A stretch of DNA of 64,000 nt from a virus. Its lineage: Duplodnaviria > Heunggongvirae > Uroviricota > Caudoviricetes. Positions 9,379-44,241 of the stretch are shown in pieces. Under the pieces are notes generated by a model. The model saw nothing but the letters and a program-made list of their open reading frames with translations, was not told the DNA's origin and ran no database searches. Each line of letters starts with the position of its first letter. Position 1 is the first letter of the stretch. Both the position numbers and the translations under genes were made by a program. The stretch lies in IMG/VR virus record IMGVR_UViG_3300045988_157791. One strand, 5' to 3'.

Positions 9379-10046
9379 TATTCTTCTTCCTCCAGACTCA
9401 ACAGATAATCTACAAATTCTTCAAACTCGGCTTCCGCCTTTTTGTCGCGCTCGCTACCGGTCATTTCAAAGATAGAACGACCAGACTCTTCCGCATCATC
9501 ATAGACGTTGCGGTTATATAGATTGACTGGCGCAGACTCGATTCCAAACGTCTCAACAATCTCTTTAGCCGCCAGAATGCGAGACACTTGTGATGGCAAA
9601 GCCGGGCACTGGTTCATGACCGCGCGGACCTTCACTTTATCGTTTACATTGCGAACATTGTCGATAATAGGATCGATGTCACGTAAAGATTTCAAATCAC
9701 GACGCTTAGGACGCAGCGGGATAATGATAACGTCAGCCATCAGCATCGCTTGTCGCTGAATTTCGGAGTCGAAGCCACCAGCATCTACCACTACAAACTC
9801 AGCTCTACCCTGAAGCGATTTTAGGTGCTTAATGATGTCATCCTGAACGTATGCAAAAGGAATCAGCTCAAGGTCTTCGTTCTGTCGACGGTCTTCACAC
9901 CAGCTCGTTGTCGTGCGCTGAATATCTATATCGGTAATATAAACCTTCTTCTTCTTTTTGACTTTCAGGCAAACGGCAATTTGCTGGGCAACGGTGGATT
10001 TGCCAGGCCCGCCCTTTGTGCCGCCAACCACAAAGATCTTGGTCAT
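9378..10046 (-). CDS. ParA-family partition ATPase (small type Ib-like)
   Basis: Deviant Walker A GGTKGGPGKST near the N-terminus and VVVDAGG motif; 222 aa. Confidence 0.7.
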   Translation of the reverse strand: MTKIFVVGGTKGGPGKSTVAQQIAVCLKVKKKKKVYITDIDIQRTTTSWCEDRRQNEDLELIPFAYVQDDIIKHLKSLQGRAEFVVVDAGGFDSEIQRQAMLMADVIIIPLRPKRRDLKSLRDIDPIIDNVRNVNDKVKVRAVMNQCPALPSQVSRILAAKEIVETFGIESAPVNLYNRNVYDDAEESGRSIFEMTGSERDKKAEAEFEEFVDYLLSLEEEE

Positions 10047-10078
10047 TGGAGAGTTCCCTTTGCGTCTATTATTATCGT

Positions 10079-10112: not shown

Positions 10113-10364
10113 CTAAATGCCTACGGCTACGGTGTAAAGGTTAAATGGTAGGTTGTGGTTAACAATTGGCAATCATAGCTTGTATTTGTCTGTTGAAAAA
10201 AGTAACAATGACCTCTATATTACAAGTACGGTGATATGCCGTACACAATTTGATAATGCACACGTAATGGGCTATAGCCTTTTAAAGTAATTTTTGAGTC
10301 GAAAACTCAGTTTGAACAGAGGAGATTGATGGCCTTCCTACATCACGGCCATCAGGAGGAATAC

Positions 10365-10634
10365 ATGTCAGCACTAAAAAAGCAGCGCATCGATTTGAGA
10401 TTAACCGATGACGATAAAAGCATCATCGAGGAAGCTGCCGCAATGTCTAACCAGAGCATTACTCAGTTTATGGTTAGCAGTGCATCTGAACGTGCCGTGA
10501 AAGTTATAGAGCAACACCGTAGACTAGTTCTGAATGAAGAATCCTGGAATCTGGTTATGGACGCTATAAGCAATCCTCCGGCACCGAACGACAAGCTGAA
10601 ACGAGCTGCTGATCGTCTGAAAAGCATGGAGTAG
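10365..10634 (+). CDS. DUF1778-type antitoxin (TacA/AtaR-like)
   Basis: MSALKKQRIDLRLTDDDKSIIEEAA... with AGGAGG ribosome-binding site before the ATG at 10365; 8 bp before the GNAT toxin gene. Confidence 0.75.
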   Translation: MSALKKQRIDLRLTDDDKSIIEEAAAMSNQSITQFMVSSASERAVKVIEQHRRLVLNEESWNLVMDAISNPPAPNDKLKRAADRLKSME

Positions 10635-10641
10635 TTTACTC

Positions 10642-11163
10642 GTGAGCAATACAACGATAGAGATTTTCTCTGGAGAGAAAGATTATGATCTAAACGGTTT
10701 TGATTGCGGCGAAGAGTCACTAAACGCCTTTTTAGCCAACCACTTAAAAAGGCAGCATGAGGGAAAAATTCTTCGTGCTTATGTGCTTTGCACTCAAGAA
10801 GAAAGGCCAAAAGTGTTAGGATATTACACTTTGTCAGGTAGTTGTTTTGAAAAGGAGTCCTTACCTTCAAGAAGCAAACAAAAGAAGGTTCCTTATCGGA
10901 ATGTTCCAAGTGTTACTTTGGGTAGGCTGGCTTTGGACAAGTCCCTTCAAGGTCAAGGATTTGGCTCAATGCTTGTAACACATGCAATGCGCGTTGTGTA
11001 CAATGCATCTCTTGCTGTAGGCATTCATGGACTTTTCGTTGAGGCGTTAAATGACAAAGCCAAGGCGTTTTATAAAAGTTTAGGCTTTATCCAGCTGGTT
11101 GGTAACAACGAGCGTTCTTTGTTCTATCCTACAAAATCTATCGAAAAATTGTTCGAAGAATAA
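10642..11163 (+). CDS. GNAT-family acetyltransferase toxin (TacT/AtaT-like)
   Basis: GNAT motif GQGFGSMLVTHAMR; classical DUF1778 plus GNAT toxin-antitoxin arrangement. Start codon is GTG. Confidence 0.75.
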   Translation: MSNTTIEIFSGEKDYDLNGFDCGEESLNAFLANHLKRQHEGKILRAYVLCTQEERPKVLGYYTLSGSCFEKESLPSRSKQKKVPYRNVPSVTLGRLALDKSLQGQGFGSMLVTHAMRVVYNASLAVGIHGLFVEALNDKAKAFYKSLGFIQLVGNNERSLFYPTKSIEKLFEE

Positions 11164-11331
11164 TGTGTTCCCCTCATTTGAGGGGAACTTCGACATCACC
11201 AACCACAAACCCTCTCTCCCATCGTATTGTGAAAAAGGATTTGGCGTTCGGTTTCTTCAGTCATTACATCATTATTGCTGATATAGATAGGCTCAGCCCC
11301 ATCGCAGAACAACACGCTGGCTGTTTGTGGT

Positions 11332-27200: not shown

Positions 27201-28821
27201 CGCCAACTACCCCCATGATCCCTGCTCGCATCAGTTTGAACGCAACCATCGCGGCCACGACCTTACCAAGATTAATTACCAGCTCTTGGTTCTTTGCTAA
27301 CCATTGAGCAAGCTGACGCAACCCATCGATTGCCGTCGTTAACCCCGAACCTAAAGAATTGGCAAACGAAATCCCTTCGGCGCTATTCATGATTGAAGCC
27401 AGTTCTTTCATCCCCTTTGATAGAGAATCCAGATATCCGGTCTGACCAACTCGATCAGCAAATAACGTGAATGACGTCTGAAGTTGCGCCAGCGCACCTG
27501 TGTAGGTTTGCATCATGTCTTTCGCTGCGTTCTCGTTCTCCGCACGCAGACCAACAAACATCAGAGACAACGCCTGCTTTGCCTCAACCGTACCGCTGGC
27601 AACGGCTTTAGTCAGTTCCCCCATAGTGATGCCTGCGGCGTCTGCCATTGCCTGCATCGCGTTAGGAACGGCTTCACCTAATTGCTGACGTAGCTCTTCC
27701 ATTGACACAACGCCCTTACCGGACATCTGCTGAACGGCCACAGCCGCACGTTTCAACAGCTCACTATCACCACCAAAACGAGCAACGGAGTCCACCAGCG
27801 CCTTCAGAGAACCATCGGTTGGATCTAAGCCAGCAGAACGAAACTTCACGAAGGAATCTGTTAACGCCTGCATCGCGAACGGCGCATTTTGCGCCATGTC
27901 TACGATGTACTTCATATCATCAGCGGCAGCCTGGCCCGGGTTGGACTTCTCCTTATTCAACCCTCGAAGCATCACCCGCATACGTTCCATTTCGGCCGCA
28001 GCTTCAACAATAGGCTTCTGCCACCCAAACATGATGTCAGTAACCGTTCTGGCTGCATCTCCGATCTCGCCAAGCAGGAAAATGTTGCCACGAAGGCCAG
28101 AGAACATACCTCCTTCGTTACTTTTACCGCTATGGCCAGAAGCGCCGCTACGCCGCCCGCTACCACCATCGCCACTTCCAGATGTACGAACGCGTACCGG
28201 CTTGCTAATCAGTTGCTGACGTCCGATAACTTCGTCCATCTGCTCACGAACCTTTTTCAGTCCCTCGGCAGCCTGACTCGTTGTGACACCCCAATTACTG
28301 AGTCGCTTCGTCGTGGTATTAAGGCGCGTATTCATGCCACTCACGGACGCAGAGGCTTCTTTGACCTCCGTACCAAAGCGGCTTGCGCTTTTGCTTGCAT
28401 AGGTCGCCCAATCAGAGAAATCATTTAGCTCTGATTGCACTTTACGTAATGACGCGGTGAGTTTATCTACTGAAGAAGTTGTCGTATCGACGCGCTCAAT
28501 CAGGGCTTTAAGACCAGAATTGAGGCTGGTGATGTTGCCACGCATTTTACGCGTAGCATCTGAAGCAAGCTCAAAACCGGCAGCTACATCCTGTAGTTTA
28601 TCTGCCGTAGAATCGAGCTTGCTTTCCAGAACGCCAATGATACGGGCGACCGAACCCAAAGAGCGTTCAAAGGTTTGGATTTTTTGAGCAGGCTTTGTTA
28701 CCTGCTCACCAAATCGAGTAAGCAGTTTCCCCGCACGATCGATTGACGCTGTAAACTGTTTGTCTTCCAGCGACAGGATAAACTCTACGTTTTGTGACAT
28801 TCCCTTGTCATCCTCTGCCAA
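24223..28821 (-). CDS. tail tape measure protein (1532 aa)
   Basis: Very long helical protein with hydrophobic central segments, Gly-rich C-terminal region, downstream of the G/T chaperone pair. Confidence 0.85.
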   Translation of the reverse strand: MAEDDKGMSQNVEFILSLEDKQFTASIDRAGKLLTRFGEQVTKPAQKIQTFERSLGSVARIIGVLESKLDSTADKLQDVAAGFELASDATRKMRGNITSLNSGLKALIERVDTTTSSVDKLTASLRKVQSELNDFSDWATYASKSASRFGTEVKEASASVSGMNTRLNTTTKRLSNWGVTTSQAAEGLKKVREQMDEVIGRQQLISKPVRVRTSGSGDGGSGRRSGASGHSGKSNEGGMFSGLRGNIFLLGEIGDAARTVTDIMFGWQKPIVEAAAEMERMRVMLRGLNKEKSNPGQAAADDMKYIVDMAQNAPFAMQALTDSFVKFRSAGLDPTDGSLKALVDSVARFGGDSELLKRAAVAVQQMSGKGVVSMEELRQQLGEAVPNAMQAMADAAGITMGELTKAVASGTVEAKQALSLMFVGLRAENENAAKDMMQTYTGALAQLQTSFTLFADRVGQTGYLDSLSKGMKELASIMNSAEGISFANSLGSGLTTAIDGLRQLAQWLAKNQELVINLGKVVAAMVAFKLMRAGIMGVVGAGSQMVSTFATMATAIQTPFNLGATAVTRFNRAARMGLAPIPSLIFAIRGAITGLKGAFAGLTAFIAANPIGAAFTVATVAVAGLITYMTMLRSETSKVVDEIRKIPEAMTAAKRAQMAEYKARLEQQITQKEQELKSGEKVVYGPGMAGTTVKINHDERKRIENELNELRKKRDETNETIARGDLAVAKRLAKETAESQIEKILEENRDFAATFVKARQEALEKIQKIKDDGSLSDDEKSKLLAPLRETVNKSYLEPAQKLVDSLSSRKNATEKQIATLNDQLEKAKKEGNTEQIQKLQGSIRGYQEHLEVVAQELTQAEFKRDNAAKSGNGLVSINGDVLGLGTTDKAAQKALAQYMRNQMDSATYQRTLPDGTPMMDFEGKPIIGPKQLKTQLNLQKASSASSLEKMSDEERAAAIAALTKAREQDAAAAEKAAQRSANASQRAAKKEQAAQQKLAAGYQKALDKADQLMGQMGESSKATVSFDQSLRDTTKSLTDLANAVPNEFITQEMIDKAKKRLEDLKNATPEYREMFNRRNVEQMISTWAPEADSIISAGYTPSREEKVADFEDTYNRNLKALIELRDKASDPKVVALYTKKINQLIAAGNTALIKETGTATQKLALEYENLAEQIESTWTDLFSGLTDVLTDFVINGKMSFSSLSQSILKDITNMVVKSQITLPLMNMLGMGTTAAGSSQSGNLLTGVASAVANQGVRISNTVNGDKSVGEATKETSSSVTGLGQTTQQTTSVIGTATNAIGSWVSGLFNSTEAKDAETKAVKDSIFSMQNLSSVTGALSAAFAMLGANASGSGNKWLNFGATVASGLVSVWAGGGFDGLMSGSSGSTSGFNNLTSSAADGTNGIPAIPKFANGGIFGKDGVIPLRAYQKGGIANSPQLALFGEGDMNEAYVPLPDGRTIPVTLSTDGMSGGGNVLSPVSIEINVHSDGSTTESGDTESIWNNAAQRMKAIALETIAQEKRPGGSLNPNTQRN

Positions 28822-29077
28822 ATATTTGCATCAGTTGCTCTTTGGCGTCAGGGTCTGCCTTATCCTGGCTTGGATCGTAGACTTTATCTGTTACGACTGG
28901 TCTTCCAATCCTGAGTTGCAAACCCTCCATGAACGCCTTCACAGCCTCGCCATCCGCCTGGGACGCACGAGCGACTTGTAAGTTGCGGACATCCTCTTCC
29001 GCACGCAGACGGTCTATATTGCGACTGAGCATCCAGAACATCGTGAGAGGAACGTTCAGTAGCTCTAATGGCGACAC
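28808..29077 (-). CDS. tail assembly chaperone T-like frame (probable -1 frameshift extension of the G-like gene)
   Basis: ORF lies in the -1 frame relative to 29158-29475 and overlaps the tape measure start, as in lambda G/GT. Confidence 0.4.
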   Translation of the reverse strand: MSPLELLNVPLTMFWMLSRNIDRLRAEEDVRNLQVARASQADGEAVKAFMEGLQLRIGRPVVTDKVYDPSQDKADPDAKEQLMQIFGRG

Positions 29078-37341: not shown

Positions 37342-38598
37342 CTATCGAGAACCACCAAGAATAACACGGTTTTTGACTGGATACCTACGATGTACTGGAT
37401 AGCCCAATGCGTCTGCACTATGCTCAATGCCACCTGTCTTATCCATATCTCGTGTTCCAGGCTTGTAGATGACTTTTTCCAGTGAATCAATCAAATGCTT
37501 GCACTTCGGATCGATATACAGCCGGATATCTCCAGATGCGGACATCAGCATTCGGTTAACAGCATTAACACGATCCGCAATTGGCGGGTGCTTTTTCGAA
37601 TAATCGACACGTAAGAATCCCTTCTCTTTGAATATGTCTACGTCAGACTCCCCACGAGCATGTTGGCGATAAGCACCTGCCGGATCTGGAAATACCGTTA
37701 CCTGTGATTTCCAGCGCCAGAAGCGTCTCTCAAGCTCATCACAAACTTCTGCCGTGTTAGAGGAAAAGAGCACCAATTCATCAATTGCCCATAGCTCACC
37801 ATTTGGCTGAGGTTGCAAAATTACTGAAGACATCGGGTCAATGTTGAAGTCCTGCCCTACCCATATAGGCAACCGAGGGTTGAACTGAAGCGGTTTTACA
37901 TGCACGTTACGATCGAACGGGTAGTAAACGCGCCCGGACATGTTCTCAAAGCTGGCCAGGTACTCCTGAGCGAACGATTTGGGGTCCATATCGTTCTTAG
38001 CAGCTTCAATTTCCGCCGTAGGTACAAACGGAGAATCGGCAGTTACAAACTGCCAGCTCTTCCACTGTCCCTTTCTTTGCAGCTCTACGTTCTGGCCTAT
38101 AGTCCACAGTTTGTGAAATTCCGAGAAGCCTTTTGGCGTACCAATGATCAGTGCACCGCCGCGTGTCGATGAAAGAGTAGGTCGTAACACCTTGTACCAG
38201 GTGTCAGCCTTCATATCCTGAAATTCATCAAGCACTACAAAATGCAACGCTACGCCGCGCAGAGTGTCAGGCTTATCAGCACCTTTGAGGGCGATCTCCG
38301 AACCGTTCTTCAACACGATTGTCATCGTGGTGTCGTTCTTTTTCCTAACCCACTTACGAGGCAGAACTTCCTGTAGATCGTCCCACAAAATCTGGCGAGC
38401 CATCTGGTAAGTAGGAGCGACATACCAGACCCTTTGCTTTTTTTCCTTTGCCGCCGCACGAATAATAGTGGAGATCGACAACCGGGATTTTCCCCAGCGT
38501 CGACCAGCACAAACAACTTTAAATCGATGCGGAGACTGGAAGACTTTCATCTGTCCAGAATGCAGTTGCACAAGACTGAGCGAGGACGGGATTGCCAT
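37342..38598 (-). CDS. terminase large subunit
   Basis: Walker A VVCAGRRWGKS near the N-terminus, size 418 aa, 4-nt overlap with the upstream small subunit gene. Confidence 0.8.
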   Translation of the reverse strand: MAIPSSLSLVQLHSGQMKVFQSPHRFKVVCAGRRWGKSRLSISTIIRAAAKEKKQRVWYVAPTYQMARQILWDDLQEVLPRKWVRKKNDTTMTIVLKNGSEIALKGADKPDTLRGVALHFVVLDEFQDMKADTWYKVLRPTLSSTRGGALIIGTPKGFSEFHKLWTIGQNVELQRKGQWKSWQFVTADSPFVPTAEIEAAKNDMDPKSFAQEYLASFENMSGRVYYPFDRNVHVKPLQFNPRLPIWVGQDFNIDPMSSVILQPQPNGELWAIDELVLFSSNTAEVCDELERRFWRWKSQVTVFPDPAGAYRQHARGESDVDIFKEKGFLRVDYSKKHPPIADRVNAVNRMLMSASGDIRLYIDPKCKHLIDSLEKVIYKPGTRDMDKTGGIEHSADALGYPVHRRYPVKNRVILGGSR

Positions 38599-39230
38599 TA
38601 TTCGTCCTCCCCTTCACTTCCAACATCTGTCGCATCAAATTCGCTTAGAGCTTCTTCTTCCAACGTCTCAAGCAATTCGTCATCGATGATTTCAGGCTCG
38701 TCGTCTTCCTGACGTAATTTCGCCACCTGGGAAGGCGTAAGCTCACCAAATACCAGGTTCGGAATTTCTTCCTCGTCATTTTCCGCATGATCCATGCCCA
38801 ATGCTTTGGACGAAACTTCAAAGCATTTTGCAAGGGTATTACTGGCTCTCTGTAAGCTCTTGAGAGAATCCTCAATCGCCCCTAAAGGCTTACCCTCACG
38901 TTTGGCCGTAGTGACTTCGACCATCACCATCTGCCCCAACGCATACGCCCAGCCGTCATAACGTGTACGACGTTCTTCTATCTTTTCCGCACGGGCTTTA
39001 GCGCGAAGCTCTGCGTCAGATTTAAGAGACTCACGAACCATCTTCCCAACAGAGTCCGCGCCTTTCTCTAATCCTCGCTTTTTGAAATGTCTGGAGAGTG
39101 TTTCACGACGAATGCCGTACTCTTCCTCCAGCTTTGAGAGTGTATATTCGCCTGACGTCCATTTGGCTTCAGCTTCGGCCCACTCCGCTGGTGTCAGGCG
39201 AGTTTTTACCTCGTCTTTTTCGACCGTCAT
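38598..39230 (-). CDS. terminase small subunit (HTH-containing)
   Basis: N-terminal helix-turn-helix-like LSKLEEEYGIRRETLSRHF, very acidic C-terminus, coupled to TerL. Confidence 0.55.
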   Translation of the reverse strand: MTVEKDEVKTRLTPAEWAEAEAKWTSGEYTLSKLEEEYGIRRETLSRHFKKRGLEKGADSVGKMVRESLKSDAELRAKARAEKIEERRTRYDGWAYALGQMVMVEVTTAKREGKPLGAIEDSLKSLQRASNTLAKCFEVSSKALGMDHAENDEEEIPNLVFGELTPSQVAKLRQEDDEPEIIDDELLETLEEEALSEFDATDVGSEGEDE

Positions 39231-39269
39231 AGATCCCTCTAAAACACACAGAGCGCGTCCATGCGCTCT

Positions 39270-39313
39270 AAAACAACTTGTTTACTGCATCTGCTAACCA
39301 ACTTGTTTTCTGG
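39270..39313. promoter_or_regulatory. two AACAACTTGTTT operator-like half-palindromes upstream of terS
   Basis: AAAACAACTTGTTTA and CCAACTTGTTTTCTGG, same family as the parA and accessory-gene operators; adjacent hairpin AGAGCGC-GTCCAT-GCGCTCT at 39251-39271. Confidence 0.45.
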
Positions 39314-39346
39314 GGTGTTTAATTAGGTCTGGCATGTCTTACGAAG

Positions 39347-39401
39347 CCTGCTTCCGTATATATTTAATAAGTTACTTATTATTTATATATACAGATGCAG
39401 G
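39347..39401. repeat. 55-bp extended palindrome, copy B
   Basis: CCTGCTTCCGTATATATTTAATAAGTTACTTATTATTTATATATACAGATGCAGG; one mismatch to copy A. Confidence 0.7.
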
Positions 39402-39425
39402 TCTTTAAATAAGCTCCCAGACCGA

Positions 39426-39692
39426 TTACATCACCAGTAACTTCGCTTTGGCTCGACCTAAAGTGGTTAACCCAAGAGTCCGGCGGTGATAGCGATTGTC
39501 ACTGCGTTGGCGCGTATGCCCTTTCTCCACCAGCCCCTTTTTTATCAGAGCGCGAATTGAGAACTGGATACTTTGCTTGGTTGTCTTGTACGGCAAAACT
39601 TCAAGCAATTCGTCCAGGTCAAGTAGATGACCTCGCTCATAACCGAGATTGAGCGTTTTGATGATGTCCTTTTGTTTATCGGTTAACGTCAT
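39426..39692 (-). CDS. small winged-helix-like DNA-binding protein (88 aa)
   Basis: Last gene of the five-gene operon; basic C-terminus. Fold assignment tentative. Confidence 0.4.
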   Translation of the reverse strand: MTLTDKQKDIIKTLNLGYERGHLLDLDELLEVLPYKTTKQSIQFSIRALIKKGLVEKGHTRQRSDNRYHRRTLGLTTLGRAKAKLLVM

Positions 39693-39701
39693 GGCAAATC
39701 C

Positions 39702-40592
39702 TTATGCCGGTAAAGCAATTTCTAACGGTTTATCCAAAGGTTGTTTGTCGAATGCCAGCAGTGGCAGCGTGTCAGGCAGTCGACGGCCAAAGTCAGGGTT
39801 TCGGTACACACCATACAACGGAGACGTAAAGCTCAGGTTGTGAATGTCCTTGAGCAGCTTCACAATGCTGGCCTCGTCCACCAGACTGTCGGCAATGTCC
39901 TGAATCGTCGTGCCACGATTCCGCCCAGCTTTTGCCAGGGAACTGTTCTTGTGGTAGTCCGCCACCAGATCACGCAGTGCACGGCGACGACGAGACTCGC
40001 TCATAGCGAACAACTCTTTGACGATCGCCTCGTTATCACCCGGGTCGGAGCGGAAATGGCGCTGGAACACACGCAGTGCACTTTCATAGCTCTTCGGTCG
40101 CTCAGGGCGGATGAACTTAAACCCTGCTTTCATGGCGAAGGGATTGTATTTGCTCATCGATGACTGGATCTCAATGATTGGCCGGTCATGCATCCTGCTA
40201 ACCAGGTTAATCATTCGATAAGAGACGCCTACGCCACGATACTGAGTATCCACAACTGAGCGACTGATCACCGCAAAGTTGTTATTCACGTACCGACCCC
40301 AGTACTGGTTAGCCACGGTGGTATTAGTGGTTGGTTTCAACTTAGGAAACATGCGGTGGCGAGGTGCCAGCAGTAGTTTCGGATAAGCCATAACCACGAC
40401 GCCCACCAGACGGTCATCAAGTTCGCAGCGATAGTAAGTTGGCGCGAAAGGTTTGCCGTCTGTTTTGTAGTGAAGCGACTTAAGAGCGTGCCAGTCCTCT
40501 ACAGTTCCCTTTGTGACTGTCATTCGTTCCAGAAAGTCCAGATGACGCGGAAACTCTTCAGGGCGGTAGCGTTTAATGATGATGTCCGTCAT
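39702..40592 (-). CDS. GNAT-like acetyltransferase-fold protein (296 aa)
   Basis: Putative acetyl-CoA binding motif TQYRGVGVSYRMINL; 4-nt overlap with the upstream ATPase gene. Confidence 0.4.
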   Translation of the reverse strand: MTDIIIKRYRPEEFPRHLDFLERMTVTKGTVEDWHALKSLHYKTDGKPFAPTYYRCELDDRLVGVVVMAYPKLLLAPRHRMFPKLKPTTNTTVANQYWGRYVNNNFAVISRSVVDTQYRGVGVSYRMINLVSRMHDRPIIEIQSSMSKYNPFAMKAGFKFIRPERPKSYESALRVFQRHFRSDPGDNEAIVKELFAMSESRRRRALRDLVADYHKNSSLAKAGRNRGTTIQDIADSLVDEASIVKLLKDIHNLSFTSPLYGVYRNPDFGRRLPDTLPLLAFDKQPLDKPLEIALPA

Positions 40593-41254
40593 GAATGGAC
40601 CTCATCATGACTACCATTGTGATATTCCACCTTCACGCGTTCTTTGTAGTGCTTGGTGATCTGCATATCCGGGCGCAGCGCGTTCTTCAGGTCTTCGTGA
40701 GTCGTCGCCACCATTACCGTCGCACCAACCTTTCGAGCGGCACGCTGGAGGTTAGATGCCACAACCTGAGCGGTTACACGGTCTAAAACAGCACCGAACT
40801 CGTCAGCAGCCCACACTTTAGCGCCTGACTCAATCAGTTTGGCAATCTTGAGACGATATTTCTGACCGTCTGACATTTCAGAAGGCTTGCGAACAAACAG
40901 ATATGCATCGTTCAGACCAGCCATAGATAACAATCCAAGCGCATCACTGGTCGTTTTGCCCAACTGATCGATGACGTTAACCTCATTATCGAAGGTAAAA
41001 TCATCGATGGAGGCTACAGACAGCCCTTCATCCTTCATCTGTCGTTGCAACTCGCGCAGCACAACGGATTTGCCGGAACCGGATTGGCCGGTGATGTACA
41101 CCACATCGCCCTGCTTCACTTCCAGCTCCAGATTGTCGTAAAGCGTCCACTCTTTTTCGTCCAGACCAAGCCCGAACGACTCAGCGATTTCCAACGTGCG
41201 CGTGGTTTTATTTACGCGTGTCTGAAACGATACGTTGATGATGTATTTGCTCAT
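40589..41254 (-). CDS. minimal ABC-type ATPase (221 aa)
   Basis: Walker A GQSGSGKS, ABC signature-like SDGQKYR, Walker B WAADEFGAVLD, H-loop TTHEDL. Confidence 0.65.
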   Translation of the reverse strand: MSKYIINVSFQTRVNKTTRTLEIAESFGLGLDEKEWTLYDNLELEVKQGDVVYITGQSGSGKSVVLRELQRQMKDEGLSVASIDDFTFDNEVNVIDQLGKTTSDALGLLSMAGLNDAYLFVRKPSEMSDGQKYRLKIAKLIESGAKVWAADEFGAVLDRVTAQVVASNLQRAARKVGATVMVATTHEDLKNALRPDMQITKHYKERVKVEYHNGSHDEVHS

Positions 41255-41952
41255 GCAGCCATCTCCCCGGAAGAGATCTTCTCCGCATATGCCACAAATG
41301 CGTCTACCCCGCTTTCTCCCGTCATTTCTTCCATGTGGGCAAGCAAATCACCAACAACAATGGCAGAGCCAGCAGGAAGCGTTTTAAAGCCCAATACGTC
41401 GACAACACGTACTTCTTCCGCTGCAACTTCACGACTGATCTCGGTGTGTTCATCCTTCTGTCGTTTAGTTTCTTCGCCAAGATCGATAACTAGCGAGTCG
41501 GTGTCCATTTCTTCTGTCATACTGCCAACGAGAACATTCAACTCACGCTCTTCAAAGCCGAAAACCTCGATATCGTCCAGAACAAGCGACTCAAGCTCTT
41601 TCTGTAGCTTAATTGCATCGTAATCAATGCTGGCAAGTCGGTTATCTTCAAGGCGCTTCGCACGAACCTCGTCATCACTGAGATCATCGCGAACAATAAC
41701 CGGTACGCGCTCAAGTCCAGCAAAAATTGCAGCCTCACGGCGGCCATGACCAGTAATAATTACGTCGTTCTTATCGACCGTAATTGGCTGGTCAAATCCG
41801 CGCTTTTTAATGGCTGCGGCCAGATCTCTGATCTGCTGTTCATCATGCTTTTTGGCATTCATCTCATAGGGAATAAGATCTGCCGGGTCGCGATATACGA
41901 TTTCAAACTTTTTGGTCATTACATACGCTCCTTGTAGTAGTCGACCAGCCAC
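41251..41952 (-). CDS. ParB/Srx-like N-terminal domain protein (233 aa)
   Basis: ParB-box-like ITGHGRREAA; acidic C-terminal half. Confidence 0.6.
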   Translation of the reverse strand: MAGRLLQGAYVMTKKFEIVYRDPADLIPYEMNAKKHDEQQIRDLAAAIKKRGFDQPITVDKNDVIITGHGRREAAIFAGLERVPVIVRDDLSDDEVRAKRLEDNRLASIDYDAIKLQKELESLVLDDIEVFGFEERELNVLVGSMTEEMDTDSLVIDLGEETKRQKDEHTEISREVAAEEVRVVDVLGFKTLPAGSAIVVGDLLAHMEEMTGESGVDAFVAYAEKISSGEMAA

Positions 41953-42617
41953 ACCAGAGCCTCACCAGCGTTCTCCATTTCATTACCGGTGTTAATAGCC
42001 TGCTCTTTGATGATGTTTTTTATGGTTTCTGCAACACGATCTGACGCATCGAAAGTTACTTTGAAGCGCATGGTCTGATGTTCCGCACCCACACGTTCGG
42101 TTTTCTCTCGTTTGTCGGTATCGACAGGCTCATCACTACCACGAGACAACGCCTCCAGTGCTTCAAGGTCGATTGCCGCCTCTTTTGCTAAAACCATCGA
42201 GATTTCGTCGTCATACGGGGCGATTTCAGACAGTTGATAGTCAAGTTCTGACTGAATTTCTTCAATGAAGCGTTGCAATGCGATTTGGTCGTCTTCACCG
42301 TATCGCTCGTTGTCCACCAGTGACATCTGTTTAGCTACGACATCGCTAATTTTGCCCACAGAAAGCACCGGAACCGTTGAAATTCCTTGCTCAATAGCGG
42401 CACGCCAGCGATGTTCGCCGCCGAGGATTTCAAAAAATCCATCTTCAAGTTCACGAGCCAAAATTGGCTTAAAAAAGCCCAATTTTTCGATAGAACCTTT
42501 CAGTTTTTCAAAATTCTGCGCACCAACCGAATTGGTGTTCCAGGTATTCGGGCGAAGGTTGGCAACATCAACCTGCAAAATCGTGATTTTTACATCCATT
42601 TTATTGCTACAATCCAC
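41919..42617 (-). CDS. ParB/Srx-like N-terminal domain protein (232 aa), paralogue of the downstream gene
   Basis: ParB-box-like LGGEHRWRAA; first gene of the operon, divergent from the SF2 helicase. Confidence 0.6.
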   Translation of the reverse strand: MDCSNKMDVKITILQVDVANLRPNTWNTNSVGAQNFEKLKGSIEKLGFFKPILARELEDGFFEILGGEHRWRAAIEQGISTVPVLSVGKISDVVAKQMSLVDNERYGEDDQIALQRFIEEIQSELDYQLSEIAPYDDEISMVLAKEAAIDLEALEALSRGSDEPVDTDKREKTERVGAEHQTMRFKVTFDASDRVAETIKNIIKEQAINTGNEMENAGEALVWLVDYYKERM

Positions 42618-42681
42618 TAAGTAATCACTTACTTATTATAATAGCCAAATAACATACAAAAGGCACTAAGGAAAGAGGTTT

Positions 42682-44241
42682 ATGACTGTTCGGATTGTAT
42701 CTAACGCAGTAAATGCGCTTATTTCTGGCGCAGATGACAAGGTAAAGCAACTGGTGCAGCAAATGTTGAGCTACGAAGTCGAGACTGGCGACTGGAAGGG
42801 CACAAGCACGATGTTCAACTGGAGTAAAAACTCGTTCCCTGCTGGCTTTGCCAAGCCTGTAGCGGCGAACTTGAACAAGGCGGGCATCAAATGTGTTCAT
42901 ATCCGCAAAGACAAAGCCCCGGCGCTTGGAAAGCCAAATCCGGCGGTTAACCCATTCCCATACAATCCTGATTATGCGTATCAGGATCAGACTGTGGAAA
43001 CACTAGTTCGCGAGGGAATGATGATTGCGCAGATCGCTACTGGTGGCGGGAAATCTAATGTTGCCTGCAAAGCAGCTGCACGTATCGGTCGAATGACATT
43101 ATTTTTAACAACCCGCTCTGTTCTGATGTTTCAAATGGCCGAAAACTTCCAGAGATCCATCGACTACCGCGCCAAAAATGGCGAACCGTGGTTAAAAGAC
43201 CAAAAGGTTGGAGTCATTGGCTCGGGTGAGTTCCAGGTATCACGACATATCAACGTCGCTACAGTTCAAACTCTGGCAAGTTTCCTTGAAGAACCACCAC
43301 GCGATGCAACACCAGATAAGAAGAGCTACCACCTCAAACGTCGGGACTTGGTGAAACGCTTCCTTTCAAGTGTGTCTCTGCTTATTCTGGAAGAGGCGCA
43401 TGAGTCTTCAGGCTCTAATTTCTATGACATCGCCAGATTATGTGTGAACGCAGACTATCGTCTGGCGCTTACAGCCACGCCGTTCATGAAGGATTCTACA
43501 GAAGCCAACATGCGTCTGATGGCTGTGGCCGGGCGAATTGAAATTAAAGTCACAGAAAAGTACCTGATTGATCGAGGCATTCTGGCAAAACCGTACTTCC
43601 TTTATCATAAAGTTGCTTACAAGCCAGACGAGGTCAGAATCAAGGCGGAACTTGCCAACAAACACCTTAATTTTAGAGTAGGTATGAGCACTGCCTACCA
43701 AAAGGCTTATCAGTTGGGGATCGTGTATAATTTGGGACGTAACGAGGCCATTGTGCGCGAAGCATTGCTCTATAAGCAACATTCTCTCAATTGTATGACT
43801 CTGGTTCGTCTTAAACGCCACGGGCAAATCCTGATGGAGATGATGAAGGAGTCCGGCCTTAGAGTTGACTTCATTTATGGGGAATCGAACCAGGCGACAA
43901 GGCAAGCAAAGCTGAACAGTTTAGCGTCTGGCGAAATAGATGTTTTAATAGGCTCGACTATTCTGGATGTCGGTGTTGATGTGCCAAGCGTGGGCGCGGT
44001 CATTCTTGCTGGTGGTGGGAAAGCAGAAGTTGAAATGAGACAGCGTGTCGGTCGTGGCTTACGAGCAAAAAAAAATCAGGCAAACGTGTGTTTTATCACT
44101 GATTTCATTGACATTAGCAACAAATACCTGTTGTCTCACTCTTATGAGCGAAAACACATCATCGACACCACACCTGGCTTTGCAGAAGGTGTATTGCCTA
44201 TTGATGGCGCATTCGATTTTGGAGTTCTGAAACGAGATTAG
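42682..44241 (+). CDS. superfamily 2 DEAD/DEAH-box-type helicase
   Basis: Motif I ATGGGKS, motif II LEEAHE, motif III TATP, motif VI QRVGRGLR. Confidence 0.75.
   Translation: MTVRIVSNAVNALISGADDKVKQLVQQMLSYEVETGDWKGTSTMFNWSKNSFPAGFAKPVAANLNKAGIKCVHIRKDKAPALGKPNPAVNPFPYNPDYAYQDQTVETLVREGMMIAQIATGGGKSNVACKAAARIGRMTLFLTTRSVLMFQMAENFQRSIDYRAKNGEPWLKDQKVGVIGSGEFQVSRHINVATVQTLASFLEEPPRDATPDKKSYHLKRRDLVKRFLSSVSLLILEEAHESSGSNFYDIARLCVNADYRLALTATPFMKDSTEANMRLMAVAGRIEIKVTEKYLIDRGILAKPYFLYHKVAYKPDEVRIKAELANKHLNFRVGMSTAYQKAYQLGIVYNLGRNEAIVREALLYKQHSLNCMTLVRLKRHGQILMEMMKESGLRVDFIYGESNQATRQAKLNSLASGEIDVLIGSTILDVGVDVPSVGAVILAGGGKAEVEMRQRVGRGLRAKKNQANVCFITDFIDISNKYLLSHSYERKHIIDTTPGFAEGVLPIDGAFDFGVLKRD

Follow-up and report, generated by a model that had tools for sequence, protein, structure and literature searches.

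GNAT-fold enzymes that act on bases of the phage DNA polymer include Mom of phage Mu, an adenine methylcarbamoyl/acyl transferase, and gp48 of phage PaMx11, a 5-NmdU N-acetyltransferase, and acetylation of a base in the DNA polymer by a GNAT protein is documented (Lee et al., PMC8989533). On RNA, the ATP-dependent cytidine N4-acetyltransferases TmcA and NAT10 couple a nucleoside triphosphatase (NTPase) module to a GNAT domain for base acetylation. Another family, listed as COG2401 (MK0520, "ABC-type ATPase fused to a predicted acetyltransferase"), has been assigned, by in-silico prediction, the acylation of a DNA base (Iyer et al., 2013, as restated in Iyer et al., 2021, PMC7824862), and the restating passages name Tenacibaculum phage pT24 as the exemplar. 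Here, we analyze a 64,000-nucleotide stretch of DNA from the IMG/VR virus record IMGVR_UViG_3300045988_157791 (“the window”, meaning the whole of this stretch), which carries at 39426-42617 a minus-strand operon of five genes for two ParB-like proteins, an ABC ATPase, a GNAT protein, and a small basic protein. By collinear alignment, the ABC and GNAT proteins belong together to the COG2401 family. An earlier note on this DNA had put the operon forward as a novel system. This does not hold in full, since DNA-base acylation by ABC-GNAT proteins has already been predicted according to the restated account and the exemplar pT24 carries a homologue; the ParB-ABC-GNAT operon varies in a new way the architecture of an uncharacterised system that had been predicted, and does not represent a categorically new one. 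The reading that we favor, although we place it somewhat short of an even chance, is that the operon encodes an ABC-GNAT enzyme that depends on ATP, is assisted by ParB, and acylates bases of phage DNA.

The locus differs from COG2401-like fusions in several respects: ABC and GNAT are encoded by separate, translationally coupled genes, two ParB paralogues and a winged helix-turn-helix (wHTH) gene are added, and the module is a core block of a lineage of 105-122 kb siphoviruses and phage-plasmids. Compared with Mom and gp48, the window GNAT protein has a 90-residue insertion and both ABC and ParB partners, which those enzymes lack, and it shows no membership in their families at the sequence level. 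TmcA and NAT10 use a P-loop domain of the helicase type on an RNA substrate, whereas the window ATPase is of the ABC type, and the homology is limited to the GNAT fold. Since the 2013 prediction is known to us via PMC7824862 only, links of the family to the large terminase subunit (TerL), to ParB fusions, and to formyltransferases may have been described before. In literature searches, no experimental study of the ABC-GNAT module or of the corresponding genes of Salmonella phage SSU5 turned up.

For the ParB-like partners, the closest parallel comes from a different chemistry. Recently, short ParB-fold proteins without an evident DNA-binding domain were found to be required by a subclass of phage thymine dioxygenases acting on double-stranded DNA (O'Toole et al., 2026, PMC13229309), and ParB (27%) and terminase (19%) domains are among the commonest neighbors of such modification pathways (PMC13229309). 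ParB-fold fusions to methyltransferases and acetyltransferases, with varied nucleotide specificity, have also been described (Kaljevic et al., 2025, PMC12704722). Like the pair 5mYOX176/ParB176, the window operon places a short ParB-fold protein, consisting of a nucleotide-binding and a small C-terminal domain, beside a (here predicted) DNA-modifying enzyme and near terminase genes. However, the partner of ParB176 is an Fe/2-oxoglutarate-dependent dioxygenase, while the window operon has an ABC-GNAT pair and two ParB paralogues, and its ParB dependence is a prediction.

The gene order, coupling, folds, motifs, fusions, and terminase linkage described below are observations. All five minus-strand open reading frames (ORFs) at 39426-42617 are present in the sequence, with overlaps that can be read directly from it, in agreement with the coherent, uncharacterised operon outlined earlier:

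41919..42599, minus strand: ParB1, ParB/Srx N-terminal domain, 226 amino acids (aa); PF02195, E 3.3e-13; phrog_723, E 2e-79
41251..41919, minus strand: ParB2, paralogous ParB/Srx N-terminal domain, 222 aa; PF02195, E 1.5e-8; phrog_930, E 1e-112
40589..41254, minus strand: soluble minimal ABC ATPase, 221 aa; PF00005, E 5.8e-13; phrog_293, E 6e-59
39702..40592, minus strand: predicted GNAT-fold acyltransferase, 296 aa, isoelectric point (pI) 9.8
39426..39692, minus strand: small basic protein, probable winged helix, 88 aa, pI 10.2; phrog_900, E 2e-45

As described in the earlier note, ParB2 and ABC (41251-41254) as well as ABC and GNAT (40589-40592) overlap by 4 nucleotides (nt). The sequence at both junctions is ATGA, and a spacer of 9 nt separates the GNAT gene from the wHTH gene. 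The reported 34-nt overlap at 41919-41952, however, is an artefact of taking GTG 41952 as the start of ParB2. The PHROG 930 alignment to the ParB2 ORF begins only at residue 12, the gene measures 669 nt in deposited annotations, and a Shine-Dalgarno-like AAGGAG lies 9 nt upstream of ATG 41919; because of these three points, ParB2 is assigned ATG 41919 as its start, and the ParB1/ParB2 junction, which reads AAGGAGCGTATGTAATG, becomes TAATG with an overlap of 1 nt. The start of ParB1 is most probably ATG 42599 and not GTG 42617, where the longest ORF begins, because the gene has 681 nt in Escherichia phages Cyrano and PhiR41_1 and in RefSeq. As read from the sequence, the five genes thus represent a tightly coupled, coherent operon.

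The ABC ATPase carries the complete set of catalytic motifs in its translation, as the earlier note had described for the core motifs: Walker A (G56-S63), Q97, the signature S128-D-G-Q131, Walker B (D151-E152), the D-loop (L157-D158), and H186, with a shortened helical subdomain. In the alignment with fused homologues these positions are invariant or nearly so, and a motif near the N-terminus (...AE(A/S)FGLG(I/L)DE...) is shared as well. An ABC transporter can be dismissed: all five proteins are free of hydrophobic segments (maximum 19-residue Kyte-Doolittle value <=1.46), and the block contains no permease gene in any lineage. Likewise, the “ABC transporter” CYRAN_75 of Cyrano was rejected as a paralogue of the ATPase, as it is a kinase-like P-loop protein of the AAA_28 family.

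The gene directly downstream of the ATPase gene encodes an intact GNAT fold with the acyl-CoA-binding motif. Motif A (R119-G-V-G122) and motif B (Y149-N-P-F-A-M-K-A-G-F158) show little or no variation in the alignment, which bears out the GNAT-motif protein noticed earlier. In the predicted structure, a basic helical insertion of ~90 aa (residues ~165-255) precedes the last β-strands, and strands 259-264 and 275-277 complete the sheet after it. Searches of the PDB with the GNAT sequence and its profile gave no match. At the level of structure, the solved folds closest to the model are those of protein and small-molecule N-acetyltransferases (Naa10, RimI, and glyphosate and IAA acetyltransferases), and the top matches among predicted viral structures include Mom-family DNA acyltransferases. 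They also include “endonuclease-like” proteins of ~550 aa, which appear to resemble the Mom-REase fusions described in PMC7824862. A GNAT toxin-antitoxin system of the TacT/AtaT/KacT type, in which a toxin of ~160-180 aa is paired with a ribbon-helix-helix or DUF1778 antitoxin, does not match, since the GNAT protein here, with its insertion, is 296 aa long and has an ABC ATPase coupled to it, its small partner is wHTH-like, and the block is core and syntenic instead of accessory and variable. A KacT-type GNAT toxin and its antitoxin are annotated in Cyrano at 28190-29024 (~10340-11174 in the window), adjoining ParA, and are a GNAT system distinct from the five-gene operon.

The coupling of ATPase and GNAT is reflected in a large family of fused proteins. 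A search of 1.84 billion cluster representatives with the GNAT profile retrieved 893 proteins, many of them 450-500 aa long with the GNAT part at ~200-480, and Pfam recognizes ABC_tran in the N-terminal halves of these 450-500-aa proteins. The window ATPase is homologous to the N-terminal and the GNAT protein to the C-terminal half, such that the domain order in hundreds of fused proteins equals the gene order in the operon. One fused protein (P0160) matches the ABC and GNAT genes of the window phage over 75% of its length and matches Tenacibaculum pT24, too; the ABC profile finds pT24 gp038 with an E-value of 3.7e-49. The COG name of the COG2401 family is also used in the JGI and Cyrano annotations. 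Based on these relationships, ABC and GNAT are predicted to act as one enzyme.

Some family members carry further domains. ParB-ABC-GNAT triple fusions are represented by four proteins of 666-699 aa (P0194, P0217, P0225, and P0227) and occur at Bathyarchaeota loci L090 and L106 as well; in two proteins a family-B DNA polymerase (PolB) precedes ABC-GNAT, and in another one (P0203) a DnaA-like ATPase does so. The ABC ATPase of one family member harbors a LAGLIDADG/Hint intein. Among the proteins of unusual architecture (P0165, P0183, P0205, and P0203), some may be read-throughs of gene calling. A TerL-ABC-GNAT fusion was considered and rejected, as the N-terminal extensions of 440-480 aa in P0196, P0203, and P0233 are not TerL, that of P0203 being the DnaA-like ATPase.

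Both ParB-like proteins have an N-terminal domain of the ParB/Srx fold with the GxxR of box II and with box III, which supports the two paralogues proposed earlier. Box II reads GGEHRWRAA in ParB1, where box III is VDNER, and TGHGRREAA in ParB2; both proteins are acidic (pI 4.5-4.6, with 4.6 for ParB1). ParB1 was aligned to the Spo0J structure 1vz0, and the family also aligns to ParB and Noc structures. ParB2 is most closely related to families in which a ParB domain is joined to a phage DNA methyltransferase (phrog_498, E 5e-32; PADLOC MTase_II, E 2.7e-17). An alignment of both window paralogues with their counterparts in distant relatives, the single ParBs of unrelated phages, and fused and archaeal forms shows that box I, box II (G-x-H/R-R), and box III (DN) are kept, followed by an acidic linker and a small conserved C-terminal domain. 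Neither matches to helix-turn-helix (HTH) families nor the alignment revealed an HTH in ParB1 or ParB2, a negative that has a sequence basis only; the structure model of ParB1 reached a predicted local distance difference test (pLDDT) score of 40, and the homologues available for it were 85-100% identical. The window ParBs appear to resemble the activator-type ParBs of dioxygenase systems more closely than partition ParBs. Although they share the N-terminal fold and GxxR with ParABS proteins, a partition ParB was rejected, since no HTH domain for parS binding was detected, the neighbor is an ABC ATPase, and the operon lacks ParA. As the earlier note had considered likely, this is not the partition locus: the element has its own ParA gene at about 9389-10057, ~30 kb from the operon (mapped via the Cyrano annotation).

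The last gene of the operon is less clear. The earlier note had suggested a DNA-binding protein of 88 aa, and the basic character of the protein and its winged-helix matches agree with this; the matches, however, are weak (Sta1/Lrs14, E 0.003-0.004; LexA_DNA_bind, E 0.07; wHTH part of a PADLOC CARF model, E 4.5e-5). The protein is probably a winged helix. A homologue lies at the equivalent position in Pseudomonas phage nickie and other relatives, and the gene is confined to this phage lineage.

More importantly, relatives of the module are found beside terminase genes in unrelated viruses, and this near-obligate position is the strongest contextual signal, which is absent from the earlier note. 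A first IMG/VR scan with the GNAT alignment recovered near-identical SSU5-like loci only, and the distant co-occurrence rests on later scans with fused queries. Counts were made on the best 80 matches per scan, and because this is not a random sample, the following fractions are indicative only. With a fused query of the archaeal type, a scan of one genome per species gave 250 relatives, of which the best 80 are nearly all from Archaea (Bathyarchaeota, Nitrososphaeria, Aigarchaeota), and a genome often holds several copies. ORF clustering and iterated profile searches placed a same-strand TerL no more than 300 bp from the fused gene at 40/80 of these loci and within 2 kb at 52/80. The archaeal TerL is genuine (Terminase_6N, E 1.5e-19), and a tail tube and an HK97 gp10-like protein are encoded nearby. 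Of the IMG/VR contigs retrieved by this archaeal-type query, TerL adjoins the fused gene (<=300 bp, same strand) in 56/80 and is near it in 60/80. A third IMG/VR scan with a fused query of the bacterial-phage type yielded 78 usable loci: ParB lies directly upstream of the fused gene (<=150 bp, same strand) at 53 of them, and TerL follows within 3 kb on the same strand at 62, with a median gap of 586 bp that leaves space for TerS, the terminase's small subunit.

In a tblastn search of the fused protein against 50,697 phage records, 95 records from many lineages matched. A layout with ParB upstream is common to cultured phages of four phyla, namely Gordonia phage Mariokart (gp1 ParB, gp2 ABC-GNAT, gp3 formyltransferase-like, gp4 terminase), Streptococcus pyogenes prophage 315.4 (ParB, ABC, ASCH with 26.5 bits, TerL), Leptospira phage LE4 (ParB, ABC-GNAT, three small ORFs, TerL), and Pasteurella phage Pmp13 (ParB, ABC-GNAT, TerS, TerL). 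In Nonlabens phage P12024S, Tenacibaculum phage pT24, and Aeromonas phage PX29, the gene is distant from the terminase and has no recognizable ParB. Formyl_trans_N proteins directly follow the fused gene in Mariokart (gp3; L251, 1799-2446) and in Porphyromonas phage008a (L257, 6023-6496), with scores of 34.8 and 43.3 bits, above the Pfam threshold. They contain the motifs HPSLLP and HPSPLP and a later aspartate, and the Asn of the PurN type is missing; their genes occupy the slot where TerS would be expected. The “ASCH” annotation of CYRAN_64 in Cyrano has no Pfam support.

Within the archaeal set (L088-L167), one genome, Bathyarchaeota A05DMB-2, contains at least seven copies of the order tail-tube...TerL-ABC-GNAT, on contigs JAAKEZ010000001, 2, 4, 10, 16, 26, and 31, and many IMG/VR provirus calls stop right after the ABC-GNAT gene. 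Such multi-copy modules could represent several related proviruses or a domesticated element similar to a gene transfer agent.

In the window itself, the operon is located between a divergent helicase of superfamily 2 (SF2) and the terminase genes, and the helicase, TerS-like, TerL, and portal genes named or implied by the earlier description of this location are all confirmed, with portal downstream of the TerS-like gene and TerL:

42682..44241, plus strand: SF2 (UvsW/XPB-like) helicase with ResIII, DEAD, and Helicase_C domains, divergent from the operon
42600..42681, no strand: divergent intergenic region between ParB1 and the helicase, 82 bp, with TATAAT at 42640-42635 on the minus strand
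39231..39425, no strand: gap between the operon and TerS, 195 bp, with palindrome, repeats, and hairpin
38598-39230, minus strand: TerS-like gene (phrog_867)
37342-38598, minus strand: TerL, packaging gene downstream of the TerS-like gene

Over 39300-42700, the identity to Escherichia phages Cyrano, PhiR41_1, and CMS-2020a is 98-99%, compared with 85% for SSU5 and ~81% for Klebsiella phage-plasmids. Because of the near identity to Cyrano and PhiR41_1 and the 85% to SSU5, we assign the window to the SSU5-like phage-plasmids of E. coli. These elements are known to carry resistance genes. The 3.2-kb block of five genes is present in 247/5,426 complete E. coli genomes, each time on a plasmid (phage-plasmid), and in 757 PLSDB plasmids, with Klebsiella (292), Escherichia (218), Enterobacter (91), Yersinia (62), and Salmonella (49) as carriers. 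Between the window and SSU5, ABC and GNAT are 99% identical, and ParB1, ParB2, wHTH, and helicase only 87-92%, which points either to much stronger constraint or to recent exchange of these two genes alone. Adjoining the helicase, the segment 44001-48000 has a GC content of 0.38-0.40, compared to 0.45-0.50 in the remaining window, and contains small ORFs, a lipoprotein gene, and a putative regulator; it is probably an accessory, horizontally acquired segment.

The earlier note had proposed to look for the five genes as a block in unrelated phages. Indeed, an ordered block is found in cultured siphophages of 105-122 kb that infect Pseudomonas (nickie), Rhizobium (RHEph10, RHph_N1_15), Stenotrophomonas, and Xanthomonas, as well as in an Ectothiorhodospira genome, a 3.3-Mb metagenomic contig, and marine contigs from Tara Ocean. 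The order is divergent SF2 helicase, ParB, ParB, ABC, 0-3 variable small ORFs, GNAT, and small protein, followed by a gap of 135-335 bp and by TerS-like, TerL, and portal genes. The whole block is kept at about 40-59% protein identity, and the GNAT homologues within it are 41-47% identical. Across these genomes, ABC is 54-59%, TerL 56-62%, portal 47-56%, and TerS 29-35% identical. Since ABC is about as conserved as TerL and portal, and far more so than TerS, it behaves like a core gene and unlike a moron or a defence island. The SF2 helicase is a constant neighbor in this phage lineage only (L004-L007, L248-L250). The position between ABC and GNAT is an insertion hot-spot (L003, 1235-1489; L248, 5646-5981; L249, 6043-6898; L004, 8961-9999); it is empty in the window, holds a single ORF in SSU5 and nickie, and has three ORFs in both the Rhizobium phages and the Ectothiorhodospira element. 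The inserts include DUF2829, Phage_gp49_66, and RyR-domain proteins and are possibly anti-defence or accessory cargo. Upstream of the helicase, the early region encodes a PF04447 dATP/dGTP diphosphohydrolase (MazZ-like) in two Tara relatives (L006, 1573-1998; L007, 189-614) and a dCMP deaminase and NrdD in further ones.

The non-coding DNA on both sides of the operon carries several signals. A perfect TATAAT lies in the 82-bp region upstream of ParB1, which is the probable promoter region of the operon, and a scan for consensus promoters called none in either this region or the gap at 39231..39425. The gap contains an imperfect palindrome of 55 bp with an AT-rich core (39347-39401), two AAnCAACTTGTTTnCTG repeats (39271-39287 and 39296-39312), and a GC-rich, terminator-like hairpin (39270-39249) with a T-run behind it, ~20 nt before the TerS start and just ahead of its ribosome-binding site. 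Position 39364 of the window, within the palindrome, is where the linear genomes deposited for SSU5 and Cyrano start and stop. A similar gap layout occurs in the Ectothiorhodospira, Tara, ENA, Rhizobium-phage, and nickie relatives: several of the distant relatives have GC-rich inverted arms around an AT-rich core, L004 has a direct repeat of a palindromic motif, and a terminator-like hairpin precedes TerS in several of them. The gap may be a packaging (pac/cos) site, a late promoter with a terminator controlled by antitermination, or a loading site of the module.

From this body of evidence we infer the DNA substrate, the chemistry, the roles of the ParB and wHTH proteins, and the timing. In the mechanism that we propose, the phage would have bases of its own double-stranded DNA acylated post-replicatively, at about the time when the DNA is packaged. 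The ABC ATPase, as a nucleotide-driven dimerising switch, and the GNAT protein would work as a single unit, because they form a single polypeptide in most other viruses; binding and hydrolysis of ATP might engage the DNA and present a base to the GNAT active site, which would move the acyl group from acyl-CoA to an exocyclic amine, following the logic of TmcA, NAT10, Mom, and PaMx11 gp48. The acidic, HTH-less ParBs could be nucleotide-dependent activators or DNA-engagement factors on the duplex, as with the thymine dioxygenases, and the wHTH protein could serve in site recognition, perhaps of the palindrome in the adjacent gap, or in autoregulation. We favor DNA acylation because of the fusions, the intact motifs, the partner genes of a chemical type, and the kinship of ParB2 with methyltransferase-linked ParBs, and because ParB-activated modification has experimental precedent and the family an earlier in-silico prediction. 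The fusions to PolB and a DnaA-like ATPase likewise point to DNA, and the GNAT and wHTH proteins are basic. Several points weigh on the other side: no modification is reported for SSU5-like DNA in the literature; the tightest and most universal linkage of the module is to TerL and not to nucleotide-metabolism genes; most archaeal versions lack ParB; the ParBs are acidic, with no DNA-binding domain seen; and the window operon contains neither a formyltransferase nor an ASCH gene. A more far-reaching form of the idea, which we consider doubtful, is that SSU5-like elements and hundreds of bacterial and archaeal tailed viruses carry a novel acyl mark on virion DNA (e.g., N4-acyl-cytosine or N6-acyl-adenine), sometimes elaborated by a formyltransferase, and that a ParB-activated ABC-GNAT enzyme coupled to the terminase installs it, such that only capsid-bound DNA is marked.

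The linkage to TerL and the ParB-less archaeal versions would fit a role in packaging equally well. The module might mark or remodel pac/cos, with the ParBs assembling near the packaging start and ABC-GNAT as a regulator, driven by ATP, that licenses or times packaging through acetylation of TerS, TerL, portal, or a DNA-bound protein. We regard such an accessory as the main rival to DNA acylation and yet as rather unlikely overall, even though much of the genomic context speaks for it: the short distances to TerL in bacterial and archaeal viruses given above, the end of the operon 195 bp from TerS at the palindrome where deposited linear genomes begin and end, the conservation of ABC at the level of TerL and portal, and the location of the module in Pmp13 and 315.4 within the late operon, behind the genes for the late regulator and lysis. 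However, DNA-modification genes typically adjoin terminase genes, too (PMC13229309), so that position alone does not discriminate; the gene is distant from the terminase in P12024S, pT24, and PX29; no TerL fusion was found among the fused proteins examined; and formyltransferase and ASCH partners are hard to square with a purely structural or regulatory role. A separate TerS-like gene stands alongside the module in the window, nickie, and Pmp13, which means that TerS is not replaced, and a substitute for TerS was rejected on these grounds, with the TerS-like gene lying between the operon and TerL in the window and TerS annotated beside the module in Pmp13.

Substrates other than DNA are conceivable as well. 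In an enzyme for host takeover or anti-defence, the GNAT would acylate a host protein or a small molecule, such as a nucleotide signal or aminoacyl-tRNA, under regulation by the ABC and ParB NTPases. The solved folds closest to the GNAT model, the known phage GNATs that modify host RNA polymerase (Rac, cited in PMC7824862), and the probable accessory genes (DUF2829, RyR) inside the block of relatives are compatible with this, but a host-specific target would not predict a core syntenic position and high conservation from Archaea to Proteobacteria, nor would one expect fusions to ParB, PolB, and DnaA-like modules, and no PADLOC system or known anti-defence family was matched; we therefore think this improbable. 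Even less credit is due to a regulatory switch, in which the ParBs and wHTH would form a KorB/KorA-like transcriptional clamp on the helicase promoter or the late operon, with the enzymes as incidental passengers. The divergent promoter region, the palindrome, and the terminator-like hairpin before TerS would suit such a clamp, for which KorB-KorA is a precedent (cited in PMC13229309); on the other hand, wHTH is lineage-specific and ParB-ABC-GNAT recurs without it, the ParBs show no HTH, and ABC and GNAT, with invariant catalytic motifs, are the most conserved members. Phage-borne defence, which the earlier note had listed next to DNA modification and anti-defence, is unsupported: PADLOC-DB 2.0 gave no system-level match, with only generic P-loop, ParB-MTase, and wHTH similarities and none for GNAT, and the block is core and syntenic across the lineage, including phages plated on culturable hosts, instead of a variable accessory. 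Of that proposal, it is DNA modification by an ABC-GNAT enzyme that the evidence favors.

If the DNA is modified in this way, the module would represent a new chemistry in phage DNA hypermodification and would explain how these elements evade restriction, and it would be a second, independent case of ParB-fold cofactors for DNA-modifying enzymes. An acyl mark specific to the virion, if it exists, would provide a new way to tell viral from host DNA. Should the role in packaging apply instead, the module would be an unrecognised, ancient cofactor of the terminase. With fused relatives beside terminase genes in viruses from Bathyarchaeota to Streptococcus, the question has considerable breadth, and the operon makes the in-silico prediction of 2013 directly testable in a tractable E. 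coli system.

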